Shown here piece after piece: positions 7,561 through 30,183 of a DNA stretch of 64,000 nt. Where the stretch lies: NCBI RefSeq assembly GCF_001485435.1, contig NZ_BCMS01000002.1, positions 88,426-152,425 on the forward strand, written 5' to 3'. The notes below the pieces were generated by a model that had not been told where the DNA came from, ran no database searches, and worked only from the letters and a program-made list of their open reading frames with translations. Made by a program: the position numbers and the translations under genes. How positions within the stretch are numbered: position 1 is the first letter of the stretch; the number at the start of each line of letters is the position of its first letter. Source of the stretch: Deinococcus grandis. Its GTDB lineage: Bacteria; Deinococcota; Deinococci; Deinococcales; Deinococcaceae.

Positions 7561-7751
7561 AGTGTCTCCGATCCGGCGTCCGGGGAAGTGCAGAGGTGCC
7601 CAGACCCGGCGCTCTGTTCTCTGTCAGAAGTCCCGCTCCGTGGACCGCATCCAAGGTTAAGGCATCTCTCATTTCGCGTCCCAGACGACTTTCCACCTGC
7701 ATACCACCTCGTGAAAGCTCCCGGTGATGACCGGCGCGGCAGCATGAACAC

Positions 7752-8945
7752 GTGAACGGACGCCGTGAATCCACGCAGGGCCTGCTGACGGTGGCGGCCA
7801 TTCTGCTCAGCAGCGCGCTGAACTACGCGTTCACGCTGCTGCTGGGCCGCTGGCTGGACGCCGCGCAGTACGGGGCGTTCGCGTCGTTCACGTCGCTGTT
7901 CATGCTGTCGGCGGCGCTGCCGATCGCGTTCCAGCAGGCCACGTCCCGCCGCGCGCAGGGCGCGAACACCGCCGCGGCGCTGCGCGCCGGTGGGCTACTG
8001 GGCGCGGCGCTGCTGCTGCTCTCGCCACTGGCGGGCCTGCTGGGGTTGCAGCCCGCGTGGGTGGCCGCGTTCGCGCTGACCGTGCCACCGCTGGCGCTGC
8101 TGGGCGCGTGGCGCGGCGCGGCCCAGCGGGACGGCCGGGCCGCCGCGTTCGGCCTGAGCCTGCTGGCCGAGCACGGCCTGAAGATCGCGCTGACGGCGCC
8201 GCTGCTGCTGGTCCTGCCGGGCGCGGCGGCGGCGGTCGCGGCGACACTGCTGGGCATGCTGCTGGCGCTGCCGCTGGTCCGGCCCCGCCCGGCCCCTGGC
8301 GCGGCGGCCCCGGCCGCGGGGGCGGAAGGCAAGCGGCTGCTGGCGCTGGTCGCCGCCGCGCAGAGCGGGCTGCTGTACGGGGACGTGCTGCTGGCCGGGG
8401 CGCTGCTCGCCCCCGGTGACGCCGGGGCGTTCGCGGCGGCGGCGACCCTGGCGCGCGTGGTGTTCTTCGCCGGGTGGGCGGTGCAGGTCGCGGCGTTCCC
8501 GCTCGTGGCCCGCCGCGCCGCCGCCGGGGAGCCGCTGCGGCCCCTGCTGCTGGGTGCGCTGGGCGCGACGCTGCTCGTGGCGGGCGTCCCGGCGGCGCTG
8601 CTGGCGCTCGCGCCGGAGCTGTGCGCCCGCGTGGCGTTCGGCGGGGCGCTGCCGGGCGCGGCGGCGCTGCTGCCCGGCGCGGCGCTGGGCACCCTGGCGC
8701 TGACGGTGGCGGGCACGGCGCTCAATCATCTGCTCGCGTCGGGCGGGCGCGGCGCGCAGCTGCTGGCGGCGCGGGCGTACCTGCTGTCCGGCGCGGCGCT
8801 GATGCTGCTGGCCCTGGCGTCCGGTCATCAGGCCGCGCATCTGACGTTTCTCGCGGCGGTCGGCAAGGGTACGCTCCTGCTGAGCGCCGCGTCTCTCCTC
8901 ATCCCTCACCCCTGGAGGTTCACCCGTGTCGTACCCCGCGTTTGA
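7752..8945 (+). CDS. Polysaccharide biosynthesis / oligosaccharide flippase-like polytopic membrane protein (Wzx/MOP-type)
   Basis: 397 aa, about 12 hydrophobic segments, Ala/Leu-rich. GTG start. It overlaps the downstream glycosyltransferase by 20 nt. Confidence 0.55.
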   Translation: MNGRRESTQGLLTVAAILLSSALNYAFTLLLGRWLDAAQYGAFASFTSLFMLSAALPIAFQQATSRRAQGANTAAALRAGGLLGAALLLLSPLAGLLGLQPAWVAAFALTVPPLALLGAWRGAAQRDGRAAAFGLSLLAEHGLKIALTAPLLLVLPGAAAAVAATLLGMLLALPLVRPRPAPGAAAPAAGAEGKRLLALVAAAQSGLLYGDVLLAGALLAPGDAGAFAAAATLARVVFFAGWAVQVAAFPLVARRAAAGEPLRPLLLGALGATLLVAGVPAALLALAPELCARVAFGGALPGAAALLPGAALGTLALTVAGTALNHLLASGGRGAQLLAARAYLLSGAALMLLALASGHQAAHLTFLAAVGKGTLLLSAASLLIPHPWRFTRVVPRV

Positions 8946-10878
8946 GCAGTGGCGTGACGTGCCACTGCCCCGAGTCACCCTGAGTATCGTCGTGCCCGCC
9001 TACAACGAGTCCGAGCGGATCCTGCCGACCGTGGCGGCGTTCGCGGTGGCGGTCAGCGCTACCGGCGAGCCGTGGGAACTGATCGTCAGTGACGACGGCA
9101 GCCGCGACGGGACCGCCGATCTGGTCGGGGCGCTGCCGTGGGCGAACCTGCGGGTGCTGCGGCACACGAACACCGGTAAGGGCGGCGCGGTGCGCCGGGG
9201 CGTCCGCGCGGCGCGCGGGGACCTGATCCTGTTCGCGGACGCGGACAACAGCACGCCCATCGAGGAACTGCCGCGCCTGATCGCGGCGGTCCGCGCCGGG
9301 GCGCACGTCGCGATCGGGTCGCGGGCCGCCGAGGGCGCCGAGGAGGTCGGCAAGAGCCCCCTGCGGCGCCTGGTGTCGGGGGGCCTGCGGCGCGTGACGC
9401 GGCTGCTGACCGGCGTGACGGCCGAGGACACCCAGTGCGGCTTCAAGCTGTTCCGGGGCGAGGTGGCCCGCGACCTGTTCCGGCGCGGGGTGCTCGACGG
9501 GTTCTCCTTCGACCTGGAACTGCTGTACCTCGCGGCGCGTGACGGTCTGCGGGTCGTGGAGGTCCCGGTCCGCTGGGTGGACGCCCCGGACAGCAAGGTG
9601 GACCCCGTGAAGGATTCCGTGAAGTTCCTCAAGGACGTGCTGATGCTGCGCCGCCTGCATGGCAGCGGCCACCCGCGCGCGGACGGGCTGCACCTGGCGG
9701 TCGTCACGGCGTACCCGCCGGGGCGGCGCAGCCTGAACGAGTACGGCCTGCACCTGTCGCGGGTCCTGGCGGACAAGCCCGAGGTGGGGCACATGACCAT
9801 CCTGGCCGACCGGCTGCCAGATGGGCAGGAGGCCGCCGACGCCCCGAACGTGCGGCGCGTGTGGGACTTCAACGATCCCCTGTCGGCGCTGCGGGTGCTG
9901 CTGGCGCTGCGCCGCGCGCGGCCCGACGCGGTGATCTTCAACCTGCAGATGGCGAGCTTCGGGGACCGGCGCGTCCCGGCGGCGCTGGGGTTGCTGACGC
10001 CCGCCCTGGCGCGCGCGTTCGGGACGCCCAGCGTGACGCTGCTGCACAACCTGTTCGAGACGGTGGACCTGGACCGCGCGGGTTTCGGCGGGAACGCGCT
10101 GAAGGTGAAGGTGACGCGGGCGTTCGGGCGGCTGTTCACGCGGGCGCTGCTCGGCTCGAATCTCGTGGCGACGACCCTGCCGCGCTACGTGAAGCTGCTG
10201 CGCGACGAGTATGGCGCGCAGAACGTGTTCCTGGCGCCGCACGGGACGTTCCAGCTGCCCCTGCCGCCGCAGCCGTTCCCGGAGGTGCCGACCGTGATGA
10301 CCTTCGGGAAGTTCGGGACGTACAAGCGCGTGGAGGTGCTCATCGAGGCGCACCGGGAGCTGCTCACGCGGGATCCGCGCGCGCGGCTGGTGATCGCCGG
10401 GAGCGACACGCCGAACGCGCCGGGGTACCTGGCGGGCGTGCAGGCGCAGTTCGCGGACGTGCCGAACATCACCTTCACCGGCTACGTGGCCGAGGAGGAC
10501 GTGCCGCGCGTGTTCAGTGACTGCACGGTGGTGGCCTTCCCGTACAACGCCACGACCGGCAGCAGCGGCGTGCTGCATCAGGCCGGGGAATTCGGGCGTG
10601 GGGCGGTCATGCCGAACATCGGGGACCTCGCGGACCTGATCCAGGACGAGGGCTACCGCGCCGAATTCTTCGAACCCGAGGACCCGCAGTCCCTGGCGGA
10701 CGCGCTGTGGCGGGTGCTGAGCGACCCGCGTCAGGCGGCGGCCCTGGGCGACGCGAACTGGCGGGTGGCGTCCAGCCTGCCCCTCTCCGACGTGGCAGAC
10801 TGGTATCTGCTTCATATTGAAGACCTCACGGGCACCGCGCCCGGTCCCTCACCCCGCGCCCAGGAGGCCCAGGCATGA
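8926..10878 (+). CDS. Bifunctional glycosyltransferase: N-terminal GT2 (Dpm1/polyprenol-phosphate sugar transferase-like) fused to C-terminal GT4 (glycos_transf_1)
   Basis: GT2 signature: SIVVPAYNESERI, DADNSTP (DxD), QCGFKLFR. GT4 C-terminal domain signature: RLVIAGSD...VAFPY...EFGRGAVMP. 650 aa. Confidence 0.75.
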   Translation: MSYPAFEQWRDVPLPRVTLSIVVPAYNESERILPTVAAFAVAVSATGEPWELIVSDDGSRDGTADLVGALPWANLRVLRHTNTGKGGAVRRGVRAARGDLILFADADNSTPIEELPRLIAAVRAGAHVAIGSRAAEGAEEVGKSPLRRLVSGGLRRVTRLLTGVTAEDTQCGFKLFRGEVARDLFRRGVLDGFSFDLELLYLAARDGLRVVEVPVRWVDAPDSKVDPVKDSVKFLKDVLMLRRLHGSGHPRADGLHLAVVTAYPPGRRSLNEYGLHLSRVLADKPEVGHMTILADRLPDGQEAADAPNVRRVWDFNDPLSALRVLLALRRARPDAVIFNLQMASFGDRRVPAALGLLTPALARAFGTPSVTLLHNLFETVDLDRAGFGGNALKVKVTRAFGRLFTRALLGSNLVATTLPRYVKLLRDEYGAQNVFLAPHGTFQLPLPPQPFPEVPTVMTFGKFGTYKRVEVLIEAHRELLTRDPRARLVIAGSDTPNAPGYLAGVQAQFADVPNITFTGYVAEEDVPRVFSDCTVVAFPYNATTGSSGVLHQAGEFGRGAVMPNIGDLADLIQDEGYRAEFFEPEDPQSLADALWRVLSDPRQAAALGDANWRVASSLPLSDVADWYLLHIEDLTGTAPGPSPRAQEAQA

Positions 10879-11186
10879 CCCGTCCCCCCACCACCCTCGA
10901 CATCCTGGTGCGCCGCGACGCGGACGACCTGCACCTGTCGCTCAGCGGTCGCCTGGACGCGCATCAGGTGCCCGGGTTCCTCGCGGCGGCCGAACCGCTC
11001 GCGGCGCGCACGACCCTGGACCTGGGCGGCGTGACGTTCATGGATTCCAGCGGGCTGGCGGCGCTGGTGCGGCTGGTCCGCACGGCGCGCGCCGCCGGGC
11101 AGGACCTCGGGATCGTGAACATTCAGGACGGCGTGCGGCTGGCCATGGAGATCACGGGCCTGTACGCCGTGCTGCCGATCCGCTGA
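10875..11186 (+). CDS. STAS-domain anti-sigma-factor antagonist (SpoIIAA/RsbV-like)
   Basis: 103 aa. DSSGLAALV carries the conserved phosphorylatable Ser. ATGA overlap with the glycosyltransferase. Confidence 0.8.
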   Translation: MTRPPTTLDILVRRDADDLHLSLSGRLDAHQVPGFLAAAEPLAARTTLDLGGVTFMDSSGLAALVRLVRTARAAGQDLGIVNIQDGVRLAMEITGLYAVLPIR

Positions 11187-11194
11187 GCGCGGCC

Positions 11195-12742
11195 ATGGAC
11201 GTGACTGCGCCCGACCCGTTCACAGAACTCCTCGATCAGGTCGCGGACCTGAGTGACCAGCTGGTGTTCCTGCAGCGCCTGATCCCGCAGGCGCTGGCCC
11301 TGACCGACGAGGCGCAGGCGACCGGACTGGTGCAGCAGGCGGCGGCGCTGATCAACACGCCGGGCGCCGCGCTGCACGTGCGGGGCGAGTGGCTGGGCGA
11401 GACGCCGGGCTGGCTGCGGGGCGTGCAGCCGCCCGGTCACGCGGCGGTCCTCCCGGCGGGCGCGGTGCATACCGGCGCGCCGTTCTGCGGGGCGTGGCGG
11501 CTGACGGCCGTGCTGGCGGTGCCGCTGGAGCAGGGGTGGCTGGCGCTGTGGGGCAAGCGGGACTTCCAGGCGGGCGAGCGGGAGCTGATCAGCACGCTGG
11601 CGCAGCTACTCGACGCGGCGCTGCGGGCCATGCAGGGGCGGCGCGAGGCGGCCCGGTACGCGATGCAGGAACGCGACCGGCGGCAGGCGCAGGCGGTGTG
11701 GCGCGCGGTGACGCCCGAGGCGCTGAGCACGCCGCCCGGGTATCACCTGCACCTGCATTCGCAGCCGGCCAGTGATTTCGGCGGGGATTTCCAGTTTCAG
11801 GAGGCCGAGTGGATCGTGGCGGGCGACGTGAGCGGCAAGGGCCTGCCGGCGGCGATCATCACGGCGATGTTCGCGTCGGCGTTCACGGTCGCGGCGCGGT
11901 CGGCGTCGCTGAACAGCACGCTGGGCGAGGCCCTGCACGATCACCTGGAACGCTCGGGGGCGTTCTGCACGCTCGCGGCGATGCAGGTGCGGCCCGACGG
12001 GCAGCTGCGCGTGCTGAACATCGGGCATCCGCCGGTGCTGCTGCGCCGCGCCGACGGGCGCCTGGAGGAGGTGCGGGCGTCGGCGCCGCCGCTGGGGACC
12101 TTCCCGCTGCTGCACGTGGACGTCGAGCGGGTGTGGCTGCATCCGGGCGACGCGCTGCTGGTGTACAGCGACGGTCTGTTCGAGGCCGAGGACGCCTCGG
12201 GCGTGCCGTTCGGCCTGGAGCGCACGCGGCAGCTCGCGTCGGAGGTGGCGCCCACCGCGTTCATCCGGCAGGCGGTGGCGGGCCTGCGCGGCTTCGAGGT
12301 GGGCGACGACCTGACGCTGCTCGTGCTGCAGCGGGACCCGGCGGCGCGCGGGGTGCAGCGGCGCCTGCCGGGCGACCTGCAGGCCCTGGCGACCCTCAGC
12401 GAGGCGCTGCGCGAGGCGGTGCCGCCGGACCACCCGGCGCTGATGCCGGCGGAACTGGCGATCACGGAACTGTTCGTGAACGCGGTGCGGCACGGCGGGG
12501 CGCGCGAGGTGACGCTGCGGGCGCACACCTCCGGCGCGGACATTCTGGTGACCCTGATGGACGACGGGTCACCGTTCGATCCACGCAGCGCCGCGCCGCA
12601 GGAGGGCGGGGAGCTGCGCGAGCACGGGTACGGGCTGCTGATCGCGCAGCGCTGCGCGCGGGAATGGCATTATGCTCGCAAGGCACAGTTCAACCGCCAG
12701 ACGCTGCGACTGCGCGCACCCGACCTCTCCGCCCTCATCTGA
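11195..12742 (+). CDS. PP2C-type phosphatase (RsbU/SpoIIE-like) fused to an anti-sigma-factor-type serine kinase (RsbW/HATPase_c) domain, with an N-terminal sensor region
   Basis: PP2C motifs GDVSGKGLPAAIITAM and DGLFEAED. The C-terminus has ELFVNAVRHG (N-box) and HGYGLLIAQR (G2 box). ATG at 11195 lies 8 nt after the STAS gene. The long ORF 10817..12742 overlapping the STAS gene is rejected as upstream read-through. Confidence 0.75.
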   Translation: MDVTAPDPFTELLDQVADLSDQLVFLQRLIPQALALTDEAQATGLVQQAAALINTPGAALHVRGEWLGETPGWLRGVQPPGHAAVLPAGAVHTGAPFCGAWRLTAVLAVPLEQGWLALWGKRDFQAGERELISTLAQLLDAALRAMQGRREAARYAMQERDRRQAQAVWRAVTPEALSTPPGYHLHLHSQPASDFGGDFQFQEAEWIVAGDVSGKGLPAAIITAMFASAFTVAARSASLNSTLGEALHDHLERSGAFCTLAAMQVRPDGQLRVLNIGHPPVLLRRADGRLEEVRASAPPLGTFPLLHVDVERVWLHPGDALLVYSDGLFEAEDASGVPFGLERTRQLASEVAPTAFIRQAVAGLRGFEVGDDLTLLVLQRDPAARGVQRRLPGDLQALATLSEALREAVPPDHPALMPAELAITELFVNAVRHGGAREVTLRAHTSGADILVTLMDDGSPFDPRSAAPQEGGELREHGYGLLIAQRCAREWHYARKAQFNRQTLRLRAPDLSALI

Positions 12743-12768
12743 CCACGCCTGAAAGGATGCTGCCCCCG

Positions 12769-13071
12769 ATGCCCCTGACCTACACCGTGAACGGCCCTGA
12801 ACTGATCCTCTCCGGACGCCTGGACGCCCAGAACGCCCTGGATTTACGCGCCGCGCTCGCGGAGCACGCCGGGCAGACCGGTGACCTGCGCGTGGACATG
12901 GCGGACGTGCCGTTCATGGACAGCAGCGCCCTCGCGGCGCTGGTCAGCGCCCTGAAGGACCGGCGCCGCGAGGGCCGGTCGCTGCGCCTGACCCGCGCGA
13001 GTCCGGCGGTGCATGAACTGATGTCCCTGACCATGCTGGGCCGGGTCTTCGGTCTGGAGGATCCCAGGTGA
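12769..13071 (+). CDS. Second STAS-domain anti-sigma-factor antagonist
   Basis: MPLTYTVNGPELILSGRLDAQNA...FMDSSALAALV. Alternative ATG at 12757. Its stop overlaps the next gene (GTGA). Confidence 0.75.
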   Translation: MPLTYTVNGPELILSGRLDAQNALDLRAALAEHAGQTGDLRVDMADVPFMDSSALAALVSALKDRRREGRSLRLTRASPAVHELMSLTMLGRVFGLEDPR

Positions 13072-13478
13072 CGCGGCACCTGCCGGCGAACGTGACCCTG
13101 TTCGGGCACGTGCCGTCCAAGCACGTCCTGATCGTGGAGGACGCGCCGGGCATGCGGCTGCTGGTGCGGCACATCCTGCAGCAGGGTGGGCACAAGCCGC
13201 TGGAGGCCGAATCGGTCGAGGCGGCCTTCGGTGAGCTGTCGCGCGGCCCGGTGGACGTGATCGTCACGGACCTGATGCTGCCGGGCCGCTCCGGGCTGGA
13301 CCTGCTGCGGGACCTGCGGGACCTGCCGGACGCGCCGCCGGTGATCGTCCTGACCGGCAGCGGCGAGGAGGTGCTGCGCGAGCAGGCCCTGAGCCTGGGG
13401 GCGCGCAGCGTCCTGTTCAAACCCTTCAGCCGGTACGAGCTGCTGGACGCCGTGTTCGCCGCCGGGATGGGCGGCTGA
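13068..13478 (+). CDS. Stand-alone response-regulator receiver (CheY-like)
   Basis: VLIVEDAPGMR...DVIVTDLMLPGRSGLDLL...VIVLTGSG...FKPF gives the receiver Asp pocket and the conserved Lys. Confidence 0.8.
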   Translation: MTRHLPANVTLFGHVPSKHVLIVEDAPGMRLLVRHILQQGGHKPLEAESVEAAFGELSRGPVDVIVTDLMLPGRSGLDLLRDLRDLPDAPPVIVLTGSGEEVLREQALSLGARSVLFKPFSRYELLDAVFAAGMGG

Positions 13479-13600
13479 CCGGAAGGCGGGTCGCCTTGAC
13501 CCTGACGGGTCGGCTGACCCGGCTCCTGCGGCCGCGCCCCGGCTGGGCGCGTTCCGCTTGGCCGCCGCTCGTCTGGTCGCGGCCTGACGTCGCGCCGCCC

Positions 13601-13641
13601 GGGTCACCGGCTGGACCACCCGGTGGTCCAGCCGGTGACCC
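13601..13641. repeat. Perfect 41-bp palindrome (20-bp arms, 1-nt centre)
   Basis: GGGTCACCGGCTGGACCACC-C-GGTGGTCCAGCCGGTGACCC, between the receiver gene and the large membrane-protein gene. Both strands translate to a Pro/Gly-rich string, so ORF finders extend the downstream gene across it. Confidence 0.7.
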
Positions 13642-13654
13642 GGCGGGCGGGCCG

Positions 13655-16600
13655 GTGGAGCCACATCCCGGCGCGCGGCCCAGCCTGACCCTGCCGGGCG
13701 CGCTGCTGCCGCCGGGCGAGGACGAGCGGGCCGGGGGGCGGCTGCTGGCCTTCGCGCTGCTGCTGATGCTGGTCCTGCACGGCACGCAACTGATCAGCGG
13801 GTCGTTCACCCGCACCTACGACGCGCTGATTCACGTGTACTTCGGCGCGCACTACGCGAAGTCGTTCTTCGACCCGTGGGAGGCCGGGTGGTACACCGGG
13901 TTCTCGCTGACGTCGTACCCGCCGCTCAGTCACTACCTGATCGCGCTGCTGAGTGTCCCGCTGGGCCTGATGGGCGCGTTCGCCGCCACGCAGATCCTGG
14001 CGCTGACGGGCCTGACGGTCGGCATGTACCGCTTCGGGAAGGTGTTTGTCACGGCCCGCGCGGCCGGGTACGGCGCGGTACTGCTGGTCCTGTCGAGCGC
14101 CATCGCGGAGACCGTGCAGGTCTTCGGGCAGCTGCCCACCACCCTCAGCCTGGGGCTGCTGCTGAACGCCATTCCGTTCGCGGTGCGCTGGGTGCGGACC
14201 GGGCAGAAGACGTACCTGATCCGCGCGGCCATGTGGACGGCTGCGACCACCGCGGCGCACCACGTCACCACGCTGTTCGGCAGCGTGTTCTTCATCGCGC
14301 CGGTGCTGCTGGCCGTGGTGCTCGAGAGTGCCTCGCGGCCCCGCCCGGCCGAGGGCACGGGCAGCTGGTGGCGGGTCTGGCGGCGCCTCTACCGGGTGGC
14401 GCCGCGCGTGTACCGCGGCGGCCTGTACGGCGTGTCCGCCATCATGGCGCTGGTGCTGGTCGTGCTGCCCTACTGGCTCTGGAGCCGCGCCGATCCGATC
14501 ACGCAGGTCCCGATCCCGCACGGCAGCCGCGCGAACTTCCTGGAACGGCGCGACTTCGGGTTCATGTTCTGGCTGGTGCCGTGGGCGACGCTGCTGCCCA
14601 TCTACTGGGACGCGGTGCGGCGCGGCCTGTTCACGCACCGGGGGCTGCCCCGCTGGCCGATCATGGCCAGCATCCTGCTGCTGAGCCTGCTGGGTACCGG
14701 CGGCACGACGCCCATCCCGAAGGCGCTGCTGCGCGGCGCGTTCGACATCCTGACGCTGGACCGCTTCACGTTCTGGGCCTGCATGCTGATCCTGCCGCTG
14801 GCCGGTCTGGTCATCGAGTCGTGGCGGCACGGGGCGTGGCGGGTGTTCGTGCAGGCCCGCCTCGGCGCGCGGGTGCATCACGCGCTGGGCCTGCTGTTCG
14901 TGGCGGCCGCGCTGGCCCTGTCAGTGGGCGTGAGTTCCCTGACGTACTACCGCAAGTTCCAGCCGGACCGGATCGACGTGCGGCCCATCGTGCAGTTCCT
15001 GGAATCCGGCGGACGGGACCGCTACCGGTACATGGTGCTGGGCTTCGGGGATCAGATGGCGTGGCTCAGCGCGAACACCCGCGCGACCACCCCGGACGGG
15101 AACTACCACAGCGCGCGGCGCCTGCCGGAACTGACCGCCACGCCCGTGGAGCGCCTGGAGGGCGCCAAGTACACCGGCGTGCCGGGCCTGGGCAGCCTGC
15201 GGCAGTTCATGACGACCCCCGCGAAGTACAACCTGCGCTTCATGCTCAGCAACGACGCGTTCTACGACCCGGCGCTGCACATGCTCGGCTGGGTGCGGCT
15301 GGGGACCCTGCCGGGCGGGATCATGGTGTGGGAACGCCCGGACATCCCCGAGGTGCAGCCCCGCCTGCCCCGGCGGGAACTGCCGGTCTGGCAGCGGCTG
15401 ATGTGGGCGCTGCTGCCGTCCGGCGCGCCGGTCCTGGCGCTGCTGTCGCTGCTGCTGCCGGTCCGCGCGCCGCGGGGCCGCTCGCGCTGGCCGTGGGTGC
15501 GGCTGCTGGCCGAGGACAGCCTGGACCCGCCGCCGCAGCAGGGGGCGTGGTGGCACTCCTGGGTGCGGCGACTGCCGTTCCGGTCGTGGCGTACGGCCCG
15601 GCTGCGCGCCCGGCGGCGCCCCCTGGCCCAGCGGCTGCTGAACACGGGGCTGCTGCTGACGCTGGTCCTGGGCGGCGCGGCGTTCACGTACCGCAGCCTC
15701 CAGCCGCCCGAGACGCCGCAGCGGGCCGTGCTGGGCTACTGGGACGACCTGGACTTCAAACGTTTCGGCGCGGCCTACAGCTGGATTGACCCGCAGGATG
15801 GCCTGACCGAGGAACGCTGGCGGCTGGACCTGTCGGTGGTGGGGGGCCTGCGCAGCGGGTACGCGAAACTCGATTCGCTGCGCATCCTGGACGTGACGTA
15901 CAGCGGTCCGCCGGAGGCGCCGGACACGGTCGCCACCGTCCGGTCGCGCCTGACGTGGTTCACGTCCCTTGGCGACGTGACCGAGGAGGTCAGTCAGGAC
16001 CTGCGCCGCACCGCGCGCGGCTGGCGACTGCTGGTCTCCCCCACCCTGAATGTCCGGCCGCCGCTGCGCTTCCAGGCGGTGCCGGGCGTGCAGCTGGCCG
16101 CGCCCCCCGCCCTGGACATGCCGGTGCCGCTGCGGGTGATCAGTCGGCGGCTGGTCGCGTTCCGCGCCGCGCCGGGCGCGCCGGAGCAGGTGGCGGTGGT
16201 GGGCGAGGTGCAGAACGCGGGCCGGACCGGGGCGTCGCTGACCATCTCGGCCAGTGTCACGGACGCCAGCGGGCAGGAACTCGCCCGGAACGACGCGACC
16301 GAGACGTTCCTGCCGTGGCTGAATCCCGGCGAGCGCACCCCGTTCCTGATCACCTTCGACGGACCCGGCATGACCGTGGACGTCCGGGACGTGGCGAGCT
16401 TCGCCGTGCGGGCCAGCGGCGTGGCGACCAGCCGGAACCTCGCGCGGGACCTGAACCTGTGGCGGCGCGGCGGGGCCGTGCGGGTGGAGAACACCGGTCC
16501 CGCCGAGGCGACCCTGACGAACGTGATCGGCACGCTCGACGACGCGGGCGGCGTGGCGTGGGTGACCCGCACCTACCTGATGGAGGCGGTGCCGCCCATG

Positions 16601-16726
16601 CAGTCGCGCGAGGCGACCCTGCCCCTGGCGCGGCCCGGCGGGTACCGCGTGCTGCTCGGCGCGGGCGGGGGGCGCGTGACGGCCTCGCGGCTGTTCGCGC
16701 ACGCCTTCCACCGGGAGGAACCGTGA
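13655..16726 (+). CDS. Large polytopic membrane protein (~1020 aa) with a ~430-aa C-terminal extracytoplasmic domain; candidate GT-C-fold (polyprenyl-phosphate-dependent) glycosyltransferase
   Basis: More than 12 hydrophobic helices in the first ~640 aa, with a conserved-looking first loop (TYDALIHVYFGAHYAKSFFDPWE). The start is uncertain: the ORF opens at 13496, but the in-frame GTG at 13655 lies beyond the palindrome. Confidence 0.5.
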   Translation: MEPHPGARPSLTLPGALLPPGEDERAGGRLLAFALLLMLVLHGTQLISGSFTRTYDALIHVYFGAHYAKSFFDPWEAGWYTGFSLTSYPPLSHYLIALLSVPLGLMGAFAATQILALTGLTVGMYRFGKVFVTARAAGYGAVLLVLSSAIAETVQVFGQLPTTLSLGLLLNAIPFAVRWVRTGQKTYLIRAAMWTAATTAAHHVTTLFGSVFFIAPVLLAVVLESASRPRPAEGTGSWWRVWRRLYRVAPRVYRGGLYGVSAIMALVLVVLPYWLWSRADPITQVPIPHGSRANFLERRDFGFMFWLVPWATLLPIYWDAVRRGLFTHRGLPRWPIMASILLLSLLGTGGTTPIPKALLRGAFDILTLDRFTFWACMLILPLAGLVIESWRHGAWRVFVQARLGARVHHALGLLFVAAALALSVGVSSLTYYRKFQPDRIDVRPIVQFLESGGRDRYRYMVLGFGDQMAWLSANTRATTPDGNYHSARRLPELTATPVERLEGAKYTGVPGLGSLRQFMTTPAKYNLRFMLSNDAFYDPALHMLGWVRLGTLPGGIMVWERPDIPEVQPRLPRRELPVWQRLMWALLPSGAPVLALLSLLLPVRAPRGRSRWPWVRLLAEDSLDPPPQQGAWWHSWVRRLPFRSWRTARLRARRRPLAQRLLNTGLLLTLVLGGAAFTYRSLQPPETPQRAVLGYWDDLDFKRFGAAYSWIDPQDGLTEERWRLDLSVVGGLRSGYAKLDSLRILDVTYSGPPEAPDTVATVRSRLTWFTSLGDVTEEVSQDLRRTARGWRLLVSPTLNVRPPLRFQAVPGVQLAAPPALDMPVPLRVISRRLVAFRAAPGAPEQVAVVGEVQNAGRTGASLTISASVTDASGQELARNDATETFLPWLNPGERTPFLITFDGPGMTVDVRDVASFAVRASGVATSRNLARDLNLWRRGGAVRVENTGPAEATLTNVIGTLDDAGGVAWVTRTYLMEAVPPMQSREATLPLARPGGYRVLLGAGGGRVTASRLFAHAFHREEP

Positions 16727-17685
16727 GAGGCTCCCGCAGCAGGAAGTGGGGCGCGCTGCTGGCCGTGCCGGGCAGCAGGAGGCTGACCGGGCTGGTACTG
16801 GGCAGGCTGGTGCTGGCCGGACTGGTGCTGGGCGGGCTGCTGGGCGGCTGCGCGCGGCCGCCGCAGGACGACCTGCGCCTCACACCCCTGCCGACGCTGA
16901 CCCTTCAGGAAGGTCGGCTGCGTGTGACGGGCGAGGGACCGCTGCGCTTGGCCTGCGACACCCCGGCCGGGCCGGTCGTGCACATGCTGGCACGGGCGGG
17001 GCAGGTGCCGGTCCCACCCGGCGCGCTGGCCTGCGAGGCGTCCCGGCCCGGTCACGCCGAGGGCCGGGTGACCGTGGCCCTCACGCCCACGCCGACACCA
17101 TCAACGCCCCCGTCAGCGCCGACACCTCTGCCCCCCATCCCTGCGGCGCGCGGCACCCTGCGCGTCACCCCTGTCACCCTGCGACTGGGACAGCGCGAGG
17201 TGTGGACAGTCACCGCCGACCTGCGCGGCCCGGACGGTCGCGTGGCACCCGACGGCACGCCGGTCACGCTGAGCGCCGCCTCCGGCGCCGAGCGGCTCAG
17301 CGCGGTGCGCCTGACCGTCAACGGCGTCGCCCGCTGGCAGCTCACGCCCGGCGCGCCCGGCCCGTTCACGTTCACCGCCCGGAGTGGCGACTGGCAGGGC
17401 CGCGCCGCCGCCGTCGCCGCCACCGGGGTGCTCGGCGGGCGGCCGCGCGCGGTGTTCACCGGGCAGGTCCTGACCCTCGGGCCGCTGCGCTGGCAGGACG
17501 GCGCCCTCCCGGACGACGGAACCCCGGTGCGGCTGCGCGCCCTGACCCGCGCGGGGACCGTGGTGTGGTCCGCGGACGTGACGGTCGCCGCCGGGCAGGT
17601 CCGCGCCAAGGTGCCCCGGGTGCGCGGCGCCGTGACCCTCAGCGCGGAACTCGCGGGCAGCGAGGTGAGGTTCGCGTGGCCCTGA
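16723..17685 (+). CDS. Lipoprotein with Pro/Thr-rich linker and beta-rich repeats
   Basis: The GTG start overlaps the upstream stop (GTGA). The signal peptide and lipobox are LVLGGLLGG-C. The 15955 frame is chosen over the Arg-rich 16746 frame. Confidence 0.55.
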   Translation: MRGSRSRKWGALLAVPGSRRLTGLVLGRLVLAGLVLGGLLGGCARPPQDDLRLTPLPTLTLQEGRLRVTGEGPLRLACDTPAGPVVHMLARAGQVPVPPGALACEASRPGHAEGRVTVALTPTPTPSTPPSAPTPLPPIPAARGTLRVTPVTLRLGQREVWTVTADLRGPDGRVAPDGTPVTLSAASGAERLSAVRLTVNGVARWQLTPGAPGPFTFTARSGDWQGRAAAVAATGVLGGRPRAVFTGQVLTLGPLRWQDGALPDDGTPVRLRALTRAGTVVWSADVTVAAGQVRAKVPRVRGAVTLSAELAGSEVRFAWP

Positions 17686-17822
17686 TACGGATTCCGTTTG
17701 TTTCGCCAACAATCCGGAACTTCACCGGATTGTTGGCTCCACGTCCGGAACCCGTTTTTCTCCTTCTCGCATCCGCTCGGATTGAACGGGCTGTGCAGCC
17801 CATTCAATCGGAGTCCGTATGA
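17683..17822. mobile_element. MITE-like small non-coding repeat, copy A (subfamily 1), flanked by TGA/TGA
   Basis: Core 17686-17819: TACGGATTCCGTTTGTTTCG...CATTCAATCGGAGTCCGTA, with terminal inverted repeats and the internal IR CCAACAATCCGG/CCGGATTGTTGG. The left TGA is the stop of the lipoprotein gene. The right junction TA+TGA creates the ATG of the next gene. Confidence 0.8.
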
Positions 17823-19075
17823 GACCCAGACCGCGCGCCGGTCGGGCCACGCGCCTCAAACGGCTGGCGTTCGTGCTGCTCGTGCTGGGCAGCGTGGGCG
17901 GCGCGCTCGGCGCCCTGCTGCTGTCCGCGCAGGTCTTCGACCGCCTGAGCCGCGCCTCCGCGCAGGTGGACGCCCTGAGCCTCGCGCGGCGCCCCGCGTC
18001 GAGCGCGACCCTGAGCTGGCAGGCGCCGCCGCCCGGCACGCGCCAGCCGGACGGCGTGACGCTCGAGGACCTGCGACAGGCGTACCTGCTGGCCTTCAGT
18101 GAACTGACGTACGCGCATGGCAGCGGAGACACCACCGGCCTGCCGGGCCGTTTCGGTGGCCGCGCCTTGCAGGAGGCGGTGGCGGCCACCACGCCACGCA
18201 CCGGGGCGCTCGTACTCGACTGGGGGCACCGCGCCACGCCGCTGGGGCTGCTGGACGACCGGACCTTCCAGCTGCGGGACGACCTGTGGACGCTGCGCGC
18301 CCTGCCCGGCCCGGACGGCTGGCAGGAGCCGGTGGTGCGGCGGGAGACCCGCTCGGTGACCCTCCAGCAGAGCGGCGGGGTGTGGCGGGTCACGCACTGG
18401 CGCGTCACCGACTGGCGCGCCCCGCAGGCGCGTCCCGCGACGCCGCTCGCGCTGCGCGGCTGGCGCGCCGTGACCTTCCAGGACTGGAGCGACTGGACGC
18501 GGGACGAGTGGACGGCCACGCTGCGGCGCGTCCGGCAGGCCGGGCTGGGCCCGGTGGCGCTGGCCATGCCGGACGCGCCGACGCTGAACACCGGACGCGC
18601 CCTGGGCCTGGGCGTGCGGCTGGCCCGGCAGTCCGGGCTGGACGTCGTCGTGACCTTCGACACGCCCCTGACGCTGGCGTCCCTGCCGTCCCGGGTCACG
18701 GCGGCGGCGCAGGCGCGCGGCGCGCTCGCCCTGCTGCCCGGCCCGCTGCCAGACAGCTCGCTGAACACTGCCCGGGCGCTCGGGATCCTGCGGGCCGCGC
18801 AGCCCCTGCCGCTCGTCACGGGGGGCGCACCCGTCCGGACCGACGTCGCGGCGCTGATCGCCGGGACGCTCACCGACGCCCCCCCGGTCGGCCCGTCCGC
18901 GCCCGGCGTGGCGTTCCGCCTCCCGGCGCCCCCACGGCTGCCATGGAAGCAGGCCGCGTTCCTGGAGGCCGCGTCGGCCCTGCCCGACCGGGGCTGGCTC
19001 GCGCCCAGCCTGGACGCCCTGACCGACACCAGCGGGACGCTCACGCCGCTGGGCCGCGCGCTCCTGCGACGCTGA
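17819..19075 (+). CDS. Membrane-anchored hypothetical protein (N-terminal TM helix, ~390-aa extracytoplasmic region)
   Basis: MRPRPRAGRATRLKRLAFVLLVLGSVGG is the N-terminal anchor. The ATG is formed at the repeat junction, so the true start may lie further downstream. Confidence 0.5.
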   Translation: MRPRPRAGRATRLKRLAFVLLVLGSVGGALGALLLSAQVFDRLSRASAQVDALSLARRPASSATLSWQAPPPGTRQPDGVTLEDLRQAYLLAFSELTYAHGSGDTTGLPGRFGGRALQEAVAATTPRTGALVLDWGHRATPLGLLDDRTFQLRDDLWTLRALPGPDGWQEPVVRRETRSVTLQQSGGVWRVTHWRVTDWRAPQARPATPLALRGWRAVTFQDWSDWTRDEWTATLRRVRQAGLGPVALAMPDAPTLNTGRALGLGVRLARQSGLDVVVTFDTPLTLASLPSRVTAAAQARGALALLPGPLPDSSLNTARALGILRAAQPLPLVTGGAPVRTDVAALIAGTLTDAPPVGPSAPGVAFRLPAPPRLPWKQAAFLEAASALPDRGWLAPSLDALTDTSGTLTPLGRALLRR

Positions 19076-19391: not shown

Positions 19392-21932
19392 TCAGAGCGG
19401 GTCGGTGCGGGGCAGGGTGAAGGAGAAGGTGGCGCCCTGGTCGGGTTCGCTCTCGGCGTGGACCTGCCCGCCGTGGCGCTGGATGATGCGGCGGACGTTC
19501 GCGAGGCCGACGCCGGTCCCGCCGAAGTCCTCGGCGCGGTGCAGCCGCTGGAAGACGCCGAACAGCTTGTGGGCGTATGCGGGGTCGAAGCCCACGCCGT
19601 TGTCCCGGACGTTCACGCGCCACTCGCCGGGCAGCGCGTCGGCCCACACCTCGATCAGGGGTGCGGTGCGGGTCGCGGAGTACTTCACGGCGTTGGACAG
19701 CAGGTTGGTCATGACCTGGCGTAGCAGCGCGGCGTCGGCCTGCACGGTCGGGAGGGGCGAGACGCGCAGGGTGACGTCGCGGCCCTCGAGTTCGGGGGCG
19801 AGGCTGACCTGCACGCTGCCGACCAGGGCGCCGAGGTCCACGTCGCGCAGGTGCAGTTCCTGGCGGGTGACGCGGGACAGGAGCAGCATGGCGTCGATCA
19901 GGGCGTTCATCTGCGTGGCGGAGTCGCCGATGATGTTCAGGTACCGTTCGGCCTTGGGTTGGCCGCTCAGGTCGCCGAGGGTGCGGCGCAGCAGGTCGGT
20001 GAAGCCCGCGATGTGCCGCACGGGGGCGCGCAGGTCGTGGCTGACGGAGTACGCGAAGGCCTCGAGTTCCTCGTTGGCGACCTGCAGCGCGGCGTTGCTG
20101 CGGGCGGTGTCCTGCGAGGTGCGGCGCAGTTCGGTGACGCTCGCGGCGCGGTCCAGGGCGAGTTGCAGGCTGCGGGTGACGCCCTCGATCAGCGCGCGTT
20201 CGGAGGTCGTCCACTGCCGCGCCTCGTACTGGACGACGGCGAACACGCCGATCAGTTCACCGGCCTGCCGCAGGGGGACGGTGGCGGTGGCGCCCACGAC
20301 GCGCGCGGCGGGTTCCAGGCGGTCGGTGTCCGGGTCGTAGCTGTCCTGGTAGTACGGCTGGCCGCTCTGCCAGGGAATCAGGAGGTTGCGGGTGTCCTCG
20401 AGGGGCAGGCCTCGGTCGACGGCGGCCTGCAGGTCCGGGTCGCGCAGGCTGCCCACCTGGGCGCGCAGGCGCCAGAGGTCCCCTTCGGGTTCGTAGTACA
20501 CCGCGAAGCCTGCCGGGAGGAGGCTCAGGGTGATCTCCTGCGCGCGGCGGATCAGGGCGTAGCGGTCTTCCTGGGCGCCCAGGTCGCGGCTGAGCTGCGC
20601 GAAGGCCTGCAGGGAGCGGGCCTGCACCTGCAGTTCGGCGTGCTGGCTGGCCAGTCGGCGCTCGCGGGTGTCGCGGTCCACCGCCTGCGCGAGGCTGCGG
20701 CCCACGGCGCGGAACACGCTGCGTTCCCGCGCGGTCCAGTCCGGGGCGCGGCGGGTGCCCATGGCGAGCACGCCGACCGGGTGGCCCTGGTCCATGACGG
20801 GGTACAGGGCGAGGGCGCCGAACGCGTCGGCGCCGCCGACACCGGTGGTGAGTTCGCTGACGTTCGGGATGAAGTGCGGCTGGCCCTGCGCGAACGCGGC
20901 GTTCAGGCCGTCGCCGGTCAGGGTGACGCCGGTCCGCAGGTGCTGCGCGAGCCGGGCCGGGAGTTCGCCCTGGGTGACCTCGGCGCGCCAGGTGTCGCCC
21001 TGCGGGACGAGGTACGCGACCGTGAGACGCTCGAAGGTGTCGCGCAGGACCTGCGCGGCCTGCCCGGCGATGTCGGCGACGTTTCTGGAGTGCGCGGCGC
21101 GTTCCTTGAAGTCCACGAGGGCCAGCAGGGTGGCGCGTTCCACGGCCAGCTGGTGCGCGCGGGCCACGCGTTCGAGCGCCTGGCCGTAGGCGAGTGCCGC
21201 GCCGGTGAAGGCGCCGCGTTCGCTGGCGGTCCAGTGCAGGCGGTCGCGGCAGCCGACACTCAGGACCGTGATGGGCCATTCCGGGACGTGGAAGGCCTGC
21301 AGGGCCGCCACGCGGTAGTCGGCGCTGGCGGGAATGTGCTGATCGGCGGCGTTCCAGTCGTCGATGAACAGCGGGCCTGGGTGCGCCTCGGCGGCGCGCA
21401 GCGCCGGGGAGTCCCCGAGCAGACCGTCGGGGAGGGGGGCCTGGACGGCGCTGGTGGCGTTGTCCGACACGAACCGGACGGCCCCGCGGACACCGGCGCA
21501 TTCGAGGACGCTGACGGTCACGTCGGGCAGCAGGGCGCGCAGGATGTCGGCCGCGCGGCGGTTGAGGTCACCGACCTCCAGGGCGGACCCGAGGCGCTCG
21601 GTGACCTGCAGGAACGCGCTGACCGCGCCGTCCGCGCCGAGGCTGGGGGGCAGCGCGCCGACGATGCGGGTGAGGCTCTGGTCGAGCAGGTCCGTCAGGG
21701 CCGCGCGGGCCGGGCCCGGGCCCGTGACCTGCAGGGTGGCGACCGGGGTGCCCTGCGTGGGCAGCGGCTGCCCCGGCTGGCCAGGGGCCCAGGGGCTGAG
21801 ATGGGCGTGCAGGCCCGCCTCGCGGGTGCGGGGGTGGTCGAGGACTGACTGGAGGTCGTCCAGCGTCGCGGCCCGGGTGAGGGCCAGGATCAGATCTGGC
21901 CAGGGATCGGCGGGGCCGCGGGCGGTACTCAT
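19392..21932 (-). CDS. Multi-GAF-domain sensor histidine kinase (HisKA + HATPase_c)
   Basis: The H-box is AFAYSVSHDLRAPVRHI. The ATPase G-boxes are VRDNGVGFDP and GGTGVGLANVRR. Several GAF-like repeats occupy the N-terminal 550 aa. No cognate regulator is adjacent. Confidence 0.85.
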   Translation of the reverse strand: MSTARGPADPWPDLILALTRAATLDDLQSVLDHPRTREAGLHAHLSPWAPGQPGQPLPTQGTPVATLQVTGPGPARAALTDLLDQSLTRIVGALPPSLGADGAVSAFLQVTERLGSALEVGDLNRRAADILRALLPDVTVSVLECAGVRGAVRFVSDNATSAVQAPLPDGLLGDSPALRAAEAHPGPLFIDDWNAADQHIPASADYRVAALQAFHVPEWPITVLSVGCRDRLHWTASERGAFTGAALAYGQALERVARAHQLAVERATLLALVDFKERAAHSRNVADIAGQAAQVLRDTFERLTVAYLVPQGDTWRAEVTQGELPARLAQHLRTGVTLTGDGLNAAFAQGQPHFIPNVSELTTGVGGADAFGALALYPVMDQGHPVGVLAMGTRRAPDWTARERSVFRAVGRSLAQAVDRDTRERRLASQHAELQVQARSLQAFAQLSRDLGAQEDRYALIRRAQEITLSLLPAGFAVYYEPEGDLWRLRAQVGSLRDPDLQAAVDRGLPLEDTRNLLIPWQSGQPYYQDSYDPDTDRLEPAARVVGATATVPLRQAGELIGVFAVVQYEARQWTTSERALIEGVTRSLQLALDRAASVTELRRTSQDTARSNAALQVANEELEAFAYSVSHDLRAPVRHIAGFTDLLRRTLGDLSGQPKAERYLNIIGDSATQMNALIDAMLLLSRVTRQELHLRDVDLGALVGSVQVSLAPELEGRDVTLRVSPLPTVQADAALLRQVMTNLLSNAVKYSATRTAPLIEVWADALPGEWRVNVRDNGVGFDPAYAHKLFGVFQRLHRAEDFGGTGVGLANVRRIIQRHGGQVHAESEPDQGATFSFTLPRTDPL

Positions 21933-29352: not shown

Positions 29353-30183
<831 letters not shown>

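Follow-up and report, generated by a model that had tools for sequence, protein, structure and literature searches.

The nine tightly packed plus-strand genes at positions 7752-19075 of the window (the whole 64-kb stretch of Deinococcus grandis DNA that was analysed) probably form a glycan-assembly cassette with a built-in post-translational switch of that same machinery, and not a sigma-factor switch, which is how partner-switching modules are usually read. The switch-bearing cassette is not restricted to Deinococcus, but recurs in at least four phyla. Because this linkage recurs, because the phosphorylatable serine of the STAS proteins tracks the presence of the kinase, and because Flavobacteria fuse a receiver to a glycosyltransferase of the GT2 type, the cassette itself is, as judged from sequence comparison, the most likely target of the switch.

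Genes were called by GC3 framing, in concordance with independent calls on identical contigs of other assemblies, and domains were assigned with Pfam (Table 1). On this basis the gene list of the first-pass annotation, with nine genes on the plus strand, is correct in both coordinates and domains. The intergenic distances from G1 to G9 are -20, -4, +8, +26, -4, up to +176, -4 and +133 nt, and since they are short or overlapping, a single operon fits. The start of G3 and the stop of G2 overlap by 4 nt, as do the stop of G5 and the start of G6, and the longest reading frame for G7 begins with a TTG at 13496. The histidine kinase gene that converges on the operon encodes the only HisKA protein among the scanned window genes, and is a possible candidate for the kinase that acts on receiver G6. 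Other Deinococcus loci do not keep it at the corresponding place, while in Acidimicrobiia and Anaerolineae genes for histidine kinases or hybrid kinases are found beside the cassette.

Table 1. Genes of the cassette and signalling genes elsewhere in the window.
Feature	Product	Length (aa)	Position	Strand	Basis or remark
G1	Wzx/MOP-like polytopic flippase candidate	397	7752..8945	+	~12 hydrophobic segments
G2	Soluble GT2-GT4 fusion glycosyltransferase	650	8926..10878	+	Pfam
G3	STAS1, single domain	103	10875..11186	+	Pfam STAS_2, 1.1e-16
G4	GAF-like N-domain, PP2C phosphatase and RsbW-type serine kinase	515	11195..12742	+	Pfam
G5	STAS2	100	12769..13071	+	Pfam STAS_2, 2.2e-17; alternative start 12757 gives 104 aa
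G6	Stand-alone CheY-like receiver	136	13068..13478	+	Pfam Response_reg, 8.6e-26
G7	GT-C-fold membrane glycosyltransferase	1023	13655..16726	+	Length as called in other assemblies
G8	Putative lipoprotein with Ig-like domain	320	16723..17685	+	N-terminal hydrophobic segment ending LLGGC
G9	Membrane-anchored extracytoplasmic protein	418	17819..19075	+	Single N-terminal hydrophobic segment
Histidine kinase	GAF-HisKA-HATPase_c		19392..21932	-	Pfam; convergent with operon
c-di-GMP gene	TPR-GGDEF-EAL		25684-28104		
c-di-GMP gene	GAF-GGDEF		36528-38078		
c-di-GMP gene	PAS-GAF-HD-GYP		41330-43381		
c-di-GMP gene	GGDEF		62040-63695		

Four of the nine genes make up the switch module. Both STAS proteins score above the cut-off of TIGR00377 (60.8 bits for G3, with the cut-off at 53.45) and are 38% identical to each other. 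G3 carries the motif FMDSSG, in which the serine aligned to the motif's first Ser is presumably the counterpart of SpoIIAA Ser58, and G5 carries FMDSSA. The protein between them, G4, had been described previously as a fusion of PP2C and HATPase domains, and Pfam places both where expected (SpoIIE/PP2C at residues 206-380, 3.6e-34; HATPase_c_2 at residues 398-505, 1.6e-12), but that description missed an N-terminal GAF-like domain of about 170 residues that is evident in an AF2 model (pLDDT 85). Across 13 orthologs, with identities as low as 37%, no substitution is seen at the PP2C aspartates D198, D211, D326 and D371/D372, nor in the kinase N-box (E425/N429/H433), G1 box (D456xG458) or G2 box (G478xG480). 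Phosphatase and kinase thus both have intact catalytic motifs. One 633-aa relative of G4 (P0008) has a fused STAS domain as well. Receiver G6 has an acidic pocket (VEDA), a phospho-acceptor Asp (VTDLMLPG), and the Thr (VLTG) and Lys (FKPF) residues, and Pfam finds no output domain in it.

The remaining genes look like parts of an envelope glycan pathway. No Pfam family matches the window copy of G1, and an ortholog (L009:4642-5856) matches Polysacc_synt at 30.8 bits with a cut-off of 28.2. The N-terminal half of G2 is a Glycos_transf_2 domain (residues 20-185, 7.8e-29) and its C-terminal part is Glyco_trans_1_4, of the GT4 type (about residues 455-609); outside the genus Deinococcus, GT2 and GT4 are two genes. 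The GT2 half resembles polyprenyl-phosphate sugar transferases, in that its top NCBIfam matches are dolichyl-phosphate hexose transferase, PpgS, ArnC and AglJ, with all scores far under the cut-offs.

An earlier guess that the large membrane protein G7 is GT-C-like is now backed by fold searches. The protein has a multi-helix membrane module of GT-C fold, whose first outer loop bears a conserved acidic residue, followed at the C-terminus by NTF2-like and beta-sandwich domains. Its top structural neighbours are STT3B, AglB and PglB, at 8-14% identity. However, because ArnT, AftA, AftD and ALG12 score nearly as high, a role in protein glycosylation cannot be read from the fold. We considered G7 as an oligosaccharyltransferase of the STT3/AglB/PglB type and rejected this assignment, since none of the patterns WW[DE], W[WF]D[YWF]G, DxD, ExD and DxE occurs in its residues 1-620, which thus have neither a WWDYG-type motif nor a DxD/ExD. 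No specific support was found for the idea that the cluster serves S-layer glycosylation. Among named GT-C families in Pfam, only PTPS_related gives a match, which is marginal, and the relatives of G7, of which there are at least 2,796, are mostly unnamed.

Downstream, G8 is poorly conserved, with a weak Big_1 match in Pfam (24 bits, under the cut-off), and in other loci its detection between G7 and G9 is patchy. G9 had been recorded simply as a membrane protein; it is indeed membrane-anchored, but it is mostly extracytoplasmic and not polytopic. Its relatives outside the genus are 500-600 residues long, belong to the GH-A barrel clan (Cellulase/GH5 or GH2_C matches), and show NEP and ExG as consensus motifs. 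Unlike these relatives, the copy in the window gives no clan GH-A match in Pfam, and so it may be degenerate. The putative clan GH-A glycanase in most G9 relatives points towards a polysaccharide as the product.

We gathered 82 loci using G7 alone as the query; they stem from the best 80 of more than 550 matches and are phylogenetically non-independent, and all counts below refer to this set. In Deinococcota, Chloroflexota, Actinomycetota, Bacteroidota and one gammaproteobacterium, G7 occurs in these loci with the flippase, GT2, GT4 and G9. G9 adjoins G7 in 72 of the 82 loci, and G1 and G7 are found together in 59. STAS and/or receiver genes lie inside the cassette in 71 of 82 loci, and STAS genes in 50, and the closest gene for GT2, GT4 or Wzx is a median of 110 bp away from a STAS gene. 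Even where the ortholog of G4 is only 37% identical, the order Wzx, GT2, GT4, STAS, PP2C-kinase, STAS, REC and G7 is the same. Gene order and strand vary between phyla, and yet the regulatory block always adjoins GT2, GT4 or Wzx. Deinococcota have it beside GT4 and G7, Actinomycetota beside GT2, and Bacteroidota beside Wzx. Hence, synteny singles out no one target in the cassette. Transcriptional control of the operon by the module would predict such linkage equally well. The cassette flanks differ between Deinococcus species, and therefore the cassette appears to move as a unit. Several loci in Chloroflexota and Actinomycetota have G7-G9 with no regulator or glycosyltransferase nearby.

Variants of the cassette range from the full module, through a kinase without a phosphatase and STAS alone without a phospho-site, to a receiver fused to GT2. 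The last of these, a REC-GT2 fusion, is found in 13 Flavobacteriaceae loci with few or no STAS genes, and 8 others have a plain GT2 and two STAS genes. Against a profile of the cassette receiver, the GT2-fused receivers score a median of 70 bits versus 78 for unrelated receivers, which marks them as recruited independently and not as G6-lineage receivers that became fused. Two further rearrangements are each seen in one locus only. In an Anaerolineae locus (L065), a REC-PP2C fusion replaces the N-domain-PP2C and separate receiver, and one Deinococcales metagenome-assembled genome (L061) has GT4 and STAS in a single reading frame, although this could be an assembly error because G7 is in pieces in the same genome.

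The STAS phospho-site is distributed in step with the kinase. Where an RsbW-like kinase is present within the STAS block (29 loci), the D-S phospho-site is kept in 56 of 56 STAS copies, whereas in kinase-less loci 27 of 32 copies, confirmed as STAS domains by Pfam, have a different amino acid at this site (H, G, E, V, K, A, Q, I, N, R, T, L, P or Y). Three of the five kinase-less copies that keep the serine are in loci L038 and L039, which stop just past the STAS genes, the former at a contig end and the latter at the end of the fetched flank. Because the loci are phylogenetically non-independent, the contrast between 56/56 and 5/32 overstates the number of independent events. Nevertheless, the correlation suggests that both STAS proteins are substrates of the kinase. 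Moreover, STAS genes have been kept without kinase, phosphatase or phospho-Ser in five lineages, and so STAS would also have a kinase-independent role in the cassette. The original proposal that the module serves the glycan genes thereby gains strong comparative support from cross-phylum linkage, the serine-kinase correlation and the domain fusions.

From these patterns we infer a flow of signal, a STAS target and a direction of regulation. The cassette would assemble a glycan on a polyprenyl-phosphate carrier and deliver it outside the cytoplasmic membrane, with GT2 and GT4 working at the cytoplasmic face, the Wzx-like G1 flipping the lipid-linked sugar, the GT-C protein G7 transferring or polymerising it outside, and G9, a predicted GH-A glycanase in most lineages, working on the product. 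A histidine kinase would phosphorylate receiver G6, which by analogy with HsbR would bias the bifunctional G4 towards its PP2C phosphatase or its RsbW-type kinase activity; a second input to G4 may come through its GAF-like N-domain. G4 would in this way set the phosphorylation state of the conserved serine in STAS1 and STAS2. One phospho-form, probably the unphosphorylated one as in SypA and All4160, would then bind a part of the cassette that faces the cytoplasm, GT2-GT4 or the flippase, and permit synthesis. We propose more tentatively, and with somewhat less than even confidence, that the STAS pair is an integral and ancestral subunit of an undescribed GT-C glycan machine, present in at least four phyla and gated directly by the PP2C-kinase or by a GT2-fused receiver.

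Canonical partner switching would place the target elsewhere. The G4 kinase, or the STAS proteins by way of an anti-sigma factor such as FlgM, would control a sigma factor encoded at another site, which would transcribe the operon and perhaps a wider regulon, and the module would be located here for co-expression or autoregulation. The domain set is indeed that of classical RsbU/V/W systems, with STAS proteins above the TIGR00377 cut-off; regulators and their targets are commonly linked in operons, which predicts the same synteny; and unphosphorylated HsbA works through the anti-sigma factor FlgM (PMC5085249). Of the parts of an Rsb/SpoIIA-type system, the window has STAS proteins with a D-S serine (G3, G5), an RsbW-type kinase and a SpoIIE/RsbU-type PP2C (both in G4), and to this extent the first-pass annotation was right to call the module complete, but the anti-sigma target is absent. 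In line with that annotation, no sigma factor gene was found: Pfam gives no sigma-70-family domain for the window genes that were scanned, and neither among these genes nor among the annotated neighbours in loci L001-L009 is there a sigma or anti-sigma gene. A crude phmmer search of the 82 loci with SigF and RpoE queries returned nothing at E<=0.01, a weak test that had no positive control. Deinococcus genomes have few sigma factors and are not known to have one of the SigB/SigF type. The retention of STAS genes in five lineages that lack the kinase, the phosphatase or the phospho-Ser is hard to square with a role as antagonist only, and the fusion of kinase and phosphatase is the arrangement of HsbR and Rv1364c, in which STAS is the output. 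Hence, we regard control through a distant sigma factor as unlikely.

More unlikely still is that the STAS pair is a set of structural accessory subunits of the Wzx-like transporter, comparable to MlaB in MlaFEDB or STAS in SLC26, with phosphorylation as a lineage-specific addition, so that the switch gates flipping and not glycosyl transfer. In Bacteroidota the STAS pair adjoins Wzx in 14 of 15 blocks, and this adjacency is seen as well in some Chloroflexota and Actinomycetota and in the gammaproteobacterial locus, but in Deinococcota and Actinomycetota the block adjoins GT4 or GT2 and not Wzx. Both STAS proteins match MlaB (E 1.5e-9 and 5.4e-7) far under its 90-bit cut-off, and the survival of STAS without the kinase or the serine would fit a structural subunit. 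With its target inside the cassette, this is a variant of our main explanation and not a true alternative to it. The window is also rich in c-di-GMP genes (four GGDEF/EAL/HD-GYP genes at 25684-63695), and phosphorylated HsbA binds and activates the cyclase HsbD (PMC5085249), which could indicate that the STAS pair passes the signal on to a further signalling enzyme, such as a diguanylate cyclase, and that c-di-GMP or another messenger controls the glycan system. However, these genes lie outside the conserved cassette, whose flanks vary even within Deinococcus; no GGDEF, EAL or PilZ domain is found among called genes adjoining the cassette in L001-L009, and no c-di-GMP receptor domain was found in G1, G2, G7 or G9, making such a relay improbable. 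Chance or selfish co-localisation of a functionally unrelated module is barely credible, given that the association recurs in four phyla and one gammaproteobacterial locus despite reordered genes, and that start/stop overlaps join the glycosyltransferase, STAS, receiver and GT-C genes.

A switch that acts on the cassette itself would matter for several reasons. G7 represents a large, essentially unannotated GT-C family with hosts in Deinococcota, Chloroflexota, Actinomycetota and marine Bacteroidota and with conserved partners that include a glycanase-like protein, and the spread of cassette variants makes the question of the STAS partner testable with a handful of proteins. If a STAS-gated GT-C machine does exist, then 'orphan' STAS outputs such as SypA would gain a long-sought class of non-sigma targets, and the machine would found a new family among regulated systems of envelope glycosylation.

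Control of polysaccharide by partner switching is not unprecedented, and to have called it an unusual output overstated the case, because SypA/SypE and All4160/HenR/Alr3423 are already published. [quoted passage not shown] Further cited cases of partner-switched polysaccharide are Nostoc Hmp and S. meliloti. The Deinococcus cassette is similar in having STAS, a bifunctional RsbW-kinase/PP2C and a receiver inside a glycan operon. Comparative patterns suggest that its STAS proteins may be the output. SypE is a single kinase-REC-PP2C polypeptide, unlike G4 with its order of GAF-like domain, PP2C and kinase, its receiver in a gene of its own, and its two STAS proteins. The biosynthetic genes also differ from those of syp (a GT-C enzyme, G9, Wzx-like, GT2 and GT4), as does the phylum.

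In Anabaena PCC 7120, the RsbW-type kinase Alr3423 phosphorylates the STAS domain of All4160, a STAS-glycosyltransferase for envelope polysaccharide that is active in its non-phosphorylatable form, and HenR (REC-PP2C) dephosphorylates it. This system, like XssP of Synechocystis, ties STAS phosphorylation to a glycosyltransferase, and the REC-PP2C of L065 mirrors HenR just as the GT4-STAS of L061 mirrors All4160. However, in Anabaena STAS and enzyme form one protein, the genes for kinase, phosphatase and enzyme are scattered, and no GT-C partner of All4160 is described, whereas here STAS is free-standing, duplicated and operon-linked, with kinase and phosphatase fused. STAS1 of the window was considered as an All4160/XssP-type fusion and rejected, because it is a separate reading frame that overlaps the G2 stop by 4 nt.

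The analogy with HptB-HsbR-HsbA in Pseudomonas aeruginosa holds in its logic, in that HsbR is a fused phosphatase-kinase switched by receiver phosphorylation, with STAS protein HsbA, which partners FlgM and HsbD, as output (PMC5085249). HsbR differs in having its own receiver domain, fed by an Hpt protein, one STAS, and a flagellar setting with FlgM and a diguanylate cyclase as outputs. G4 is not an HsbR-type REC-PP2C-kinase, since its N-terminus is GAF-like and the receiver is the separate G6, and Pfam finds no Hpt domain among the cassette genes. The comparison made earlier with Rv1364c of Mycobacterium tuberculosis is upheld by structure, as the best PDB match of the G4 model by Foldseek is 3KE6 (Rv1364c RsbU+RsbW, E 1.3e-21, 23-25% identity), ahead of SpoIIE, the RssB PP2C domain and SiaA, and both proteins have an RsbU-like PP2C followed by an RsbW-like kinase in one chain. 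Rv1364c has its sensor and STAS in the same polypeptide, is discussed together with SigF, and is not in a glycan cluster.

On the biosynthetic side, a cytoplasmic GT-A/GT2 enzyme charges polyprenyl phosphate, a flippase follows, and a GT-C enzyme transfers the sugar outside in GtrA/GtrB/GtrC, CsbB/GtcA/YfhO and ArnC/ArnEF/ArnT (PMC13390465). The cassette would share this logic of GT2, flippase and GT-C, with the GT-C fold of G7 confirmed, and differs in its Wzx/MOP-like flippase of about 12 segments where those systems have a small GtrA-type one, its extra GT4, its glycanase-like G9 and its built-in signalling. It is also like the pgl and agl gene sets in combining a Wzx-like flippase with GT2 and GT4, and in the weak matches of its GT2 half to AglJ and dolichyl-phosphate hexose transferase.

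Nine co-directional genes, G1 to G9, were defined by third-position GC framing (the G+C content of the window is about 72%) and by Pfam, and these gene calls match those on contigs of other assemblies that carry an identical receiver protein. Four of the junctions are overlaps (20, 4, 4 and 4 nt) and two are gaps of less than 30 nt. The first-pass annotation had proposed a surface-glycan gene block with a partner-switching module embedded in it, and framing, Pfam matches and junctions uphold this arrangement with small corrections. A promoter and terminator scan of positions 7400-19500 gave no signal beyond shuffled expectation, with a tool that does not model Deinococcus promoters. The only sizeable gap among firmly called genes is the G8-G9 spacer, which by eye appears lower in G+C than its surroundings; the G6-G7 gap (at most 176 bp) varies with the choice of G7 start. 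This spacer contains a perfect 12-bp inverted repeat, CCAACAATCCGG-N7-CCGGATTGTTGG, found once in the window where chance would yield none. The repeat may serve as an operator, form an RNA hairpin, or mark a site of internal termination or processing.

Coordinates of genes and other features (window positions, except the last row, which refers to locus L007)
Feature	Position	Strand	Content
G1	7752-8945	+	about 12 hydrophobic segments
G2	8926-10878	+	GT2 + GT4
G3	10875-11186	+	STAS
G4	11195-12742	+	SpoIIE/PP2C + HATPase_c_2
G5	12769-13071	+	STAS
G6	13068-13478	+	receiver only
G7	13655-16726	+	membrane protein, 1023 aa
G8	16723-17685	+	lipoprotein-like
G8-G9 spacer	17686-17818		
Inverted repeat	17706-17736		
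G9	17819-19075	+	single N-terminal membrane anchor
Histidine kinase	19392-21932		GAF-HisKA, convergent with the operon
c-di-GMP gene	25684-28104	+	TPR-GGDEF-EAL
Glycerol block	28144-33476		SorC-type regulator, MIP-family facilitator (GlpF-like), FGGY kinase (GlpK-like), FAD glycerol-3-phosphate oxidase/dehydrogenase
c-di-GMP gene	36528-38078	-	GAF-GGDEF
c-di-GMP gene	41330-43381	+	PAS-GAF-HD-GYP
1740-aa protein	53871-59090	-	DUF3686, DUF7902, AAA domain
Neighbour 1	59217-61172	-	
Neighbour 2	61233-61826	-	
c-di-GMP gene	62040-63695	-	GGDEF
Second pair in L007	17841-19199; 19301-21611	-; +	divergent, G9-like and G7-like

Outside the conserved cassette, the window is dense in c-di-GMP signalling genes. 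It also holds an ordinary glycerol utilisation block and a 1740-aa protein whose DUF3686 match ('ATPase involved in DNA repair') scores 4e-175, and whose two same-strand neighbours have no Pfam match.

The signalling parts of the module look functional, judged by their conserved residues. Both STAS proteins, G3 and G5, which are 38% identical to each other, carry the motif FMDSS(G/A), the serine of which probably aligns with Ser58, the phospho-site of SpoIIAA. When G4 is aligned with 12 orthologs, the most distant at 37% identity, the PP2C metal-binding aspartates (D198, D211, D326 and D371/372) and the kinase motifs (N-box E425/N429/H433, G1 box D456xG458 and G2 box G478xG480) are invariant, and G6 keeps the acidic pocket, phospho-acceptor Asp, Thr and Lys of a working receiver. 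The AlphaFold model of G4 (pLDDT 85.2) has the order N-terminal domain, PP2C, kinase; the first of these, two helices and five to six strands followed by a long helix, may be read as GAF-like by inspection of the model. Among solved structures, this model best matches the RsbU+RsbW part of Rv1364c from M. tuberculosis (3KE6, E 1.3e-21), which bears out the analogy to Rv1364c drawn in the first-pass annotation. A PP2C-kinase protein of Deinococcus sedimenti is 88% identical to G4. A 633-aa relative with 60% identity to G4 (P0008), whose source is a contig of only 2.4 kb, has a STAS domain fused onto the PP2C-kinase, an Rv1364c-like all-in-one architecture.

Sequence-profile searches of Pfam, NCBIfam and PDB with G7 returned just a marginal PTPS_related match and no PDB homolog, and this near-empty annotation made a fold search necessary. 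With a structural model derived from 33 homologs (pLDDT 81.4, pTM 0.79), all 21 Foldseek matches at E<=1e-3 are GT-C enzymes. By its modelled fold, G7 is a GT-C protein of a family without a name, and its enzymatic activity is predicted. At E<=1e-20 this family counts at least 2,796 members, almost all of them annotated as hypothetical, and D56 in the first outer loop of G7 is invariant. We considered G7 as an oligosaccharyltransferase and rejected this assignment because the signature motifs are absent. For its partner G9, a homolog search gave only seven close relatives, and the alignment was built from locus-derived sequences, with orthologs from loci L012, L023, L046, L062 and L065 compared with the window gene. 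Outside the genus Deinococcus, G9 runs to 500-600 aa and includes a barrel of clan GH-A (matches to Cellulase/GH5 or GH2_C; NEP and ExG motifs). Such a protein is typical of the glycanases found alongside polysaccharide synthesis systems. The 418-aa copies from Deinococcus, including that of the window, have no GH-A-type match in Pfam, which suggests a degenerate or truncated barrel.

To collect related loci, one genome per species was scanned with G7 alone as bait and the best 80 of more than 550 relatives were kept; window proteins were then mapped on six-frame ORFs, with phmmer first and then with profiles made from the first matches. The kept loci span Deinococcota, Chloroflexota, Actinomycetota (Acidimicrobiia, Actinoplanes and Microbacteriaceae), Bacteroidota (Flavobacteriaceae and Saprospiraceae) and one gammaproteobacterium. 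Among the 82 loci of this best-80 set, which are phylogenetically non-independent in all counts given here, G7 has G9 nearby in 72, GT4 in 64, GT2 in 60 and a Wzx-like gene in 59. At least one STAS gene is near G7 in 50 of the 82, an RsbW-type kinase in 31, PP2C in 26, and either a STAS or a receiver in 71. The order and strand of cassette genes vary by phylum, and the regulatory block always adjoins GT2, GT4 or Wzx (median distance 110 bp over the same 82 loci). A metagenome contig whose G4 ortholog is 37% identical has the same gene order, but its GT2 and GT4 are separate, and its G1 counterpart scores as Polysacc_synt. The cassette flanks vary among Deinococcus species, the G4 ortholog of D. 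aquaticus (P0005) is labelled plasmid-borne, and a Deinococcus sp. cassette (L013) lies on chromosome 2; these differing flanks and locations suggest that the whole cassette is horizontally mobile and moves as a unit. In some Deinococcus species (loci L007, L011 and L014) a second divergent G9-like and G7-like pair lies directly downstream of the cassette, at a position that is occupied in the window by the histidine kinase.

Where an RsbW-type kinase is present in the STAS block (29 loci), the D-S phospho-site is kept in 56/56 STAS copies, whereas kinase-less loci keep it in just 5/32, both within the best 80 of more than 550 relatives. Three of these five copies come from L038 and L039, loci that end right after the STAS genes. 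The replacements in kinase-less loci are H, G, E, V, K, A, Q, I, N, R, T, L, P and Y, in proteins that Pfam recognises as STAS domains. Our reading of these sequences is that both STAS proteins are probable substrates of the cassette kinase and that STAS is retained even where it is non-phosphorylatable, a retention that would make STAS the element closest to the machinery. The module is also lost by degrees: Trueperaceae-like loci keep STAS-kinase-STAS without PP2C, and further reduced loci have two STAS genes and a histidine kinase, or a single STAS. Alternative wiring is evident in the best-80 set, in which 13 Flavobacteriaceae loci have a receiver-GT2 fusion and no convincing STAS, and 8 others have a plain GT2 with two STAS genes. 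The Flavobacteriaceae loci L053-L089 share the same core in two near-exclusive versions, REC-GT2 versus plain GT2 with two Ser-less STAS, and the Ser-less pair usually adjoins the flippase gene. Elsewhere, one Anaerolineae locus has a receiver fused to PP2C, and the sole GT4-STAS fusion comes from a fragmented MAG.

The phospho-site pattern, the graded loss of the module and the alternative wiring favour a switch target within the cassette, and the REC-GT2 fusions are evidence, at the level of domain architecture, for GT2 as a control point. However, when compared with the cassette-receiver profile, the receivers of these fusions do not outscore unrelated ones; they are not demonstrably of the G6 lineage and hence do not serve as a Rosetta-stone link for G6. 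Synteny does not point to one STAS target, as the block adjoins different cassette genes in different phyla. As for a sigma factor, no such domain was found in the genes scanned within the 64-kb window, and SigF and RpoE queries matched nothing in the 82 loci, a result of low weight as it lacks a positive control. The neighbouring GAF-HisKA kinase is no more than a candidate cognate sensor, its position not being conserved within the genus. In Acidimicrobiia and Anaerolineae, histidine kinase or hybrid kinase genes flank the cassette.

With the target placed within the cassette, a histidine kinase, for which the convergent GAF-HisKA protein is a weak candidate, would phosphorylate G6. G6 would then toggle G4 between kinase and phosphatase, by analogy with HsbR, in which receiver phosphorylation toggles these activities (PMC5085249). 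G4 would in turn set the serine phosphorylation state of both STAS proteins, and one STAS phospho-form, probably the unphosphorylated one as for SypA and All4160, would bind GT2-GT4 or the flippase and license synthesis. GT2 and GT4 would build a lipid-linked sugar (the likeness of GT2 to polyprenyl-phosphate sugar transferases is weak) for flipping by the Wzx-like protein, after which G7 would transfer or polymerise it outside.

Literature searches on receiver/GT2 fusions, on STAS with GT-C or oligosaccharyltransferase proteins, and on Deinococcus partner switching turned up no account of this cassette, and the available passages of an Actinoplanes EPS-cluster paper, which concern other clusters, contain no mention of STAS or phosphatase. 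We found no description of a cassette that combines a GT-C family without a name, partnered by G9, with two duplicated STAS proteins that stand free, a PP2C-kinase fusion resembling Rv1364c whose receiver is encoded separately, and a series of regulatory variants across phyla. Control of glycan enzymes had been called an unusual output for partner switching, which is overstated given the published precedents. For example, SypA/SypE of V. fischeri, encoded in the syp locus, control polysaccharide production by partner switching (PMC8256260), and Nostoc Hmp and S. meliloti are cited in the literature as further cases. Moreover, All4160 of Anabaena is itself a STAS-glycosyltransferase, under the control of HenR (REC-PP2C) and the kinase Alr3423.
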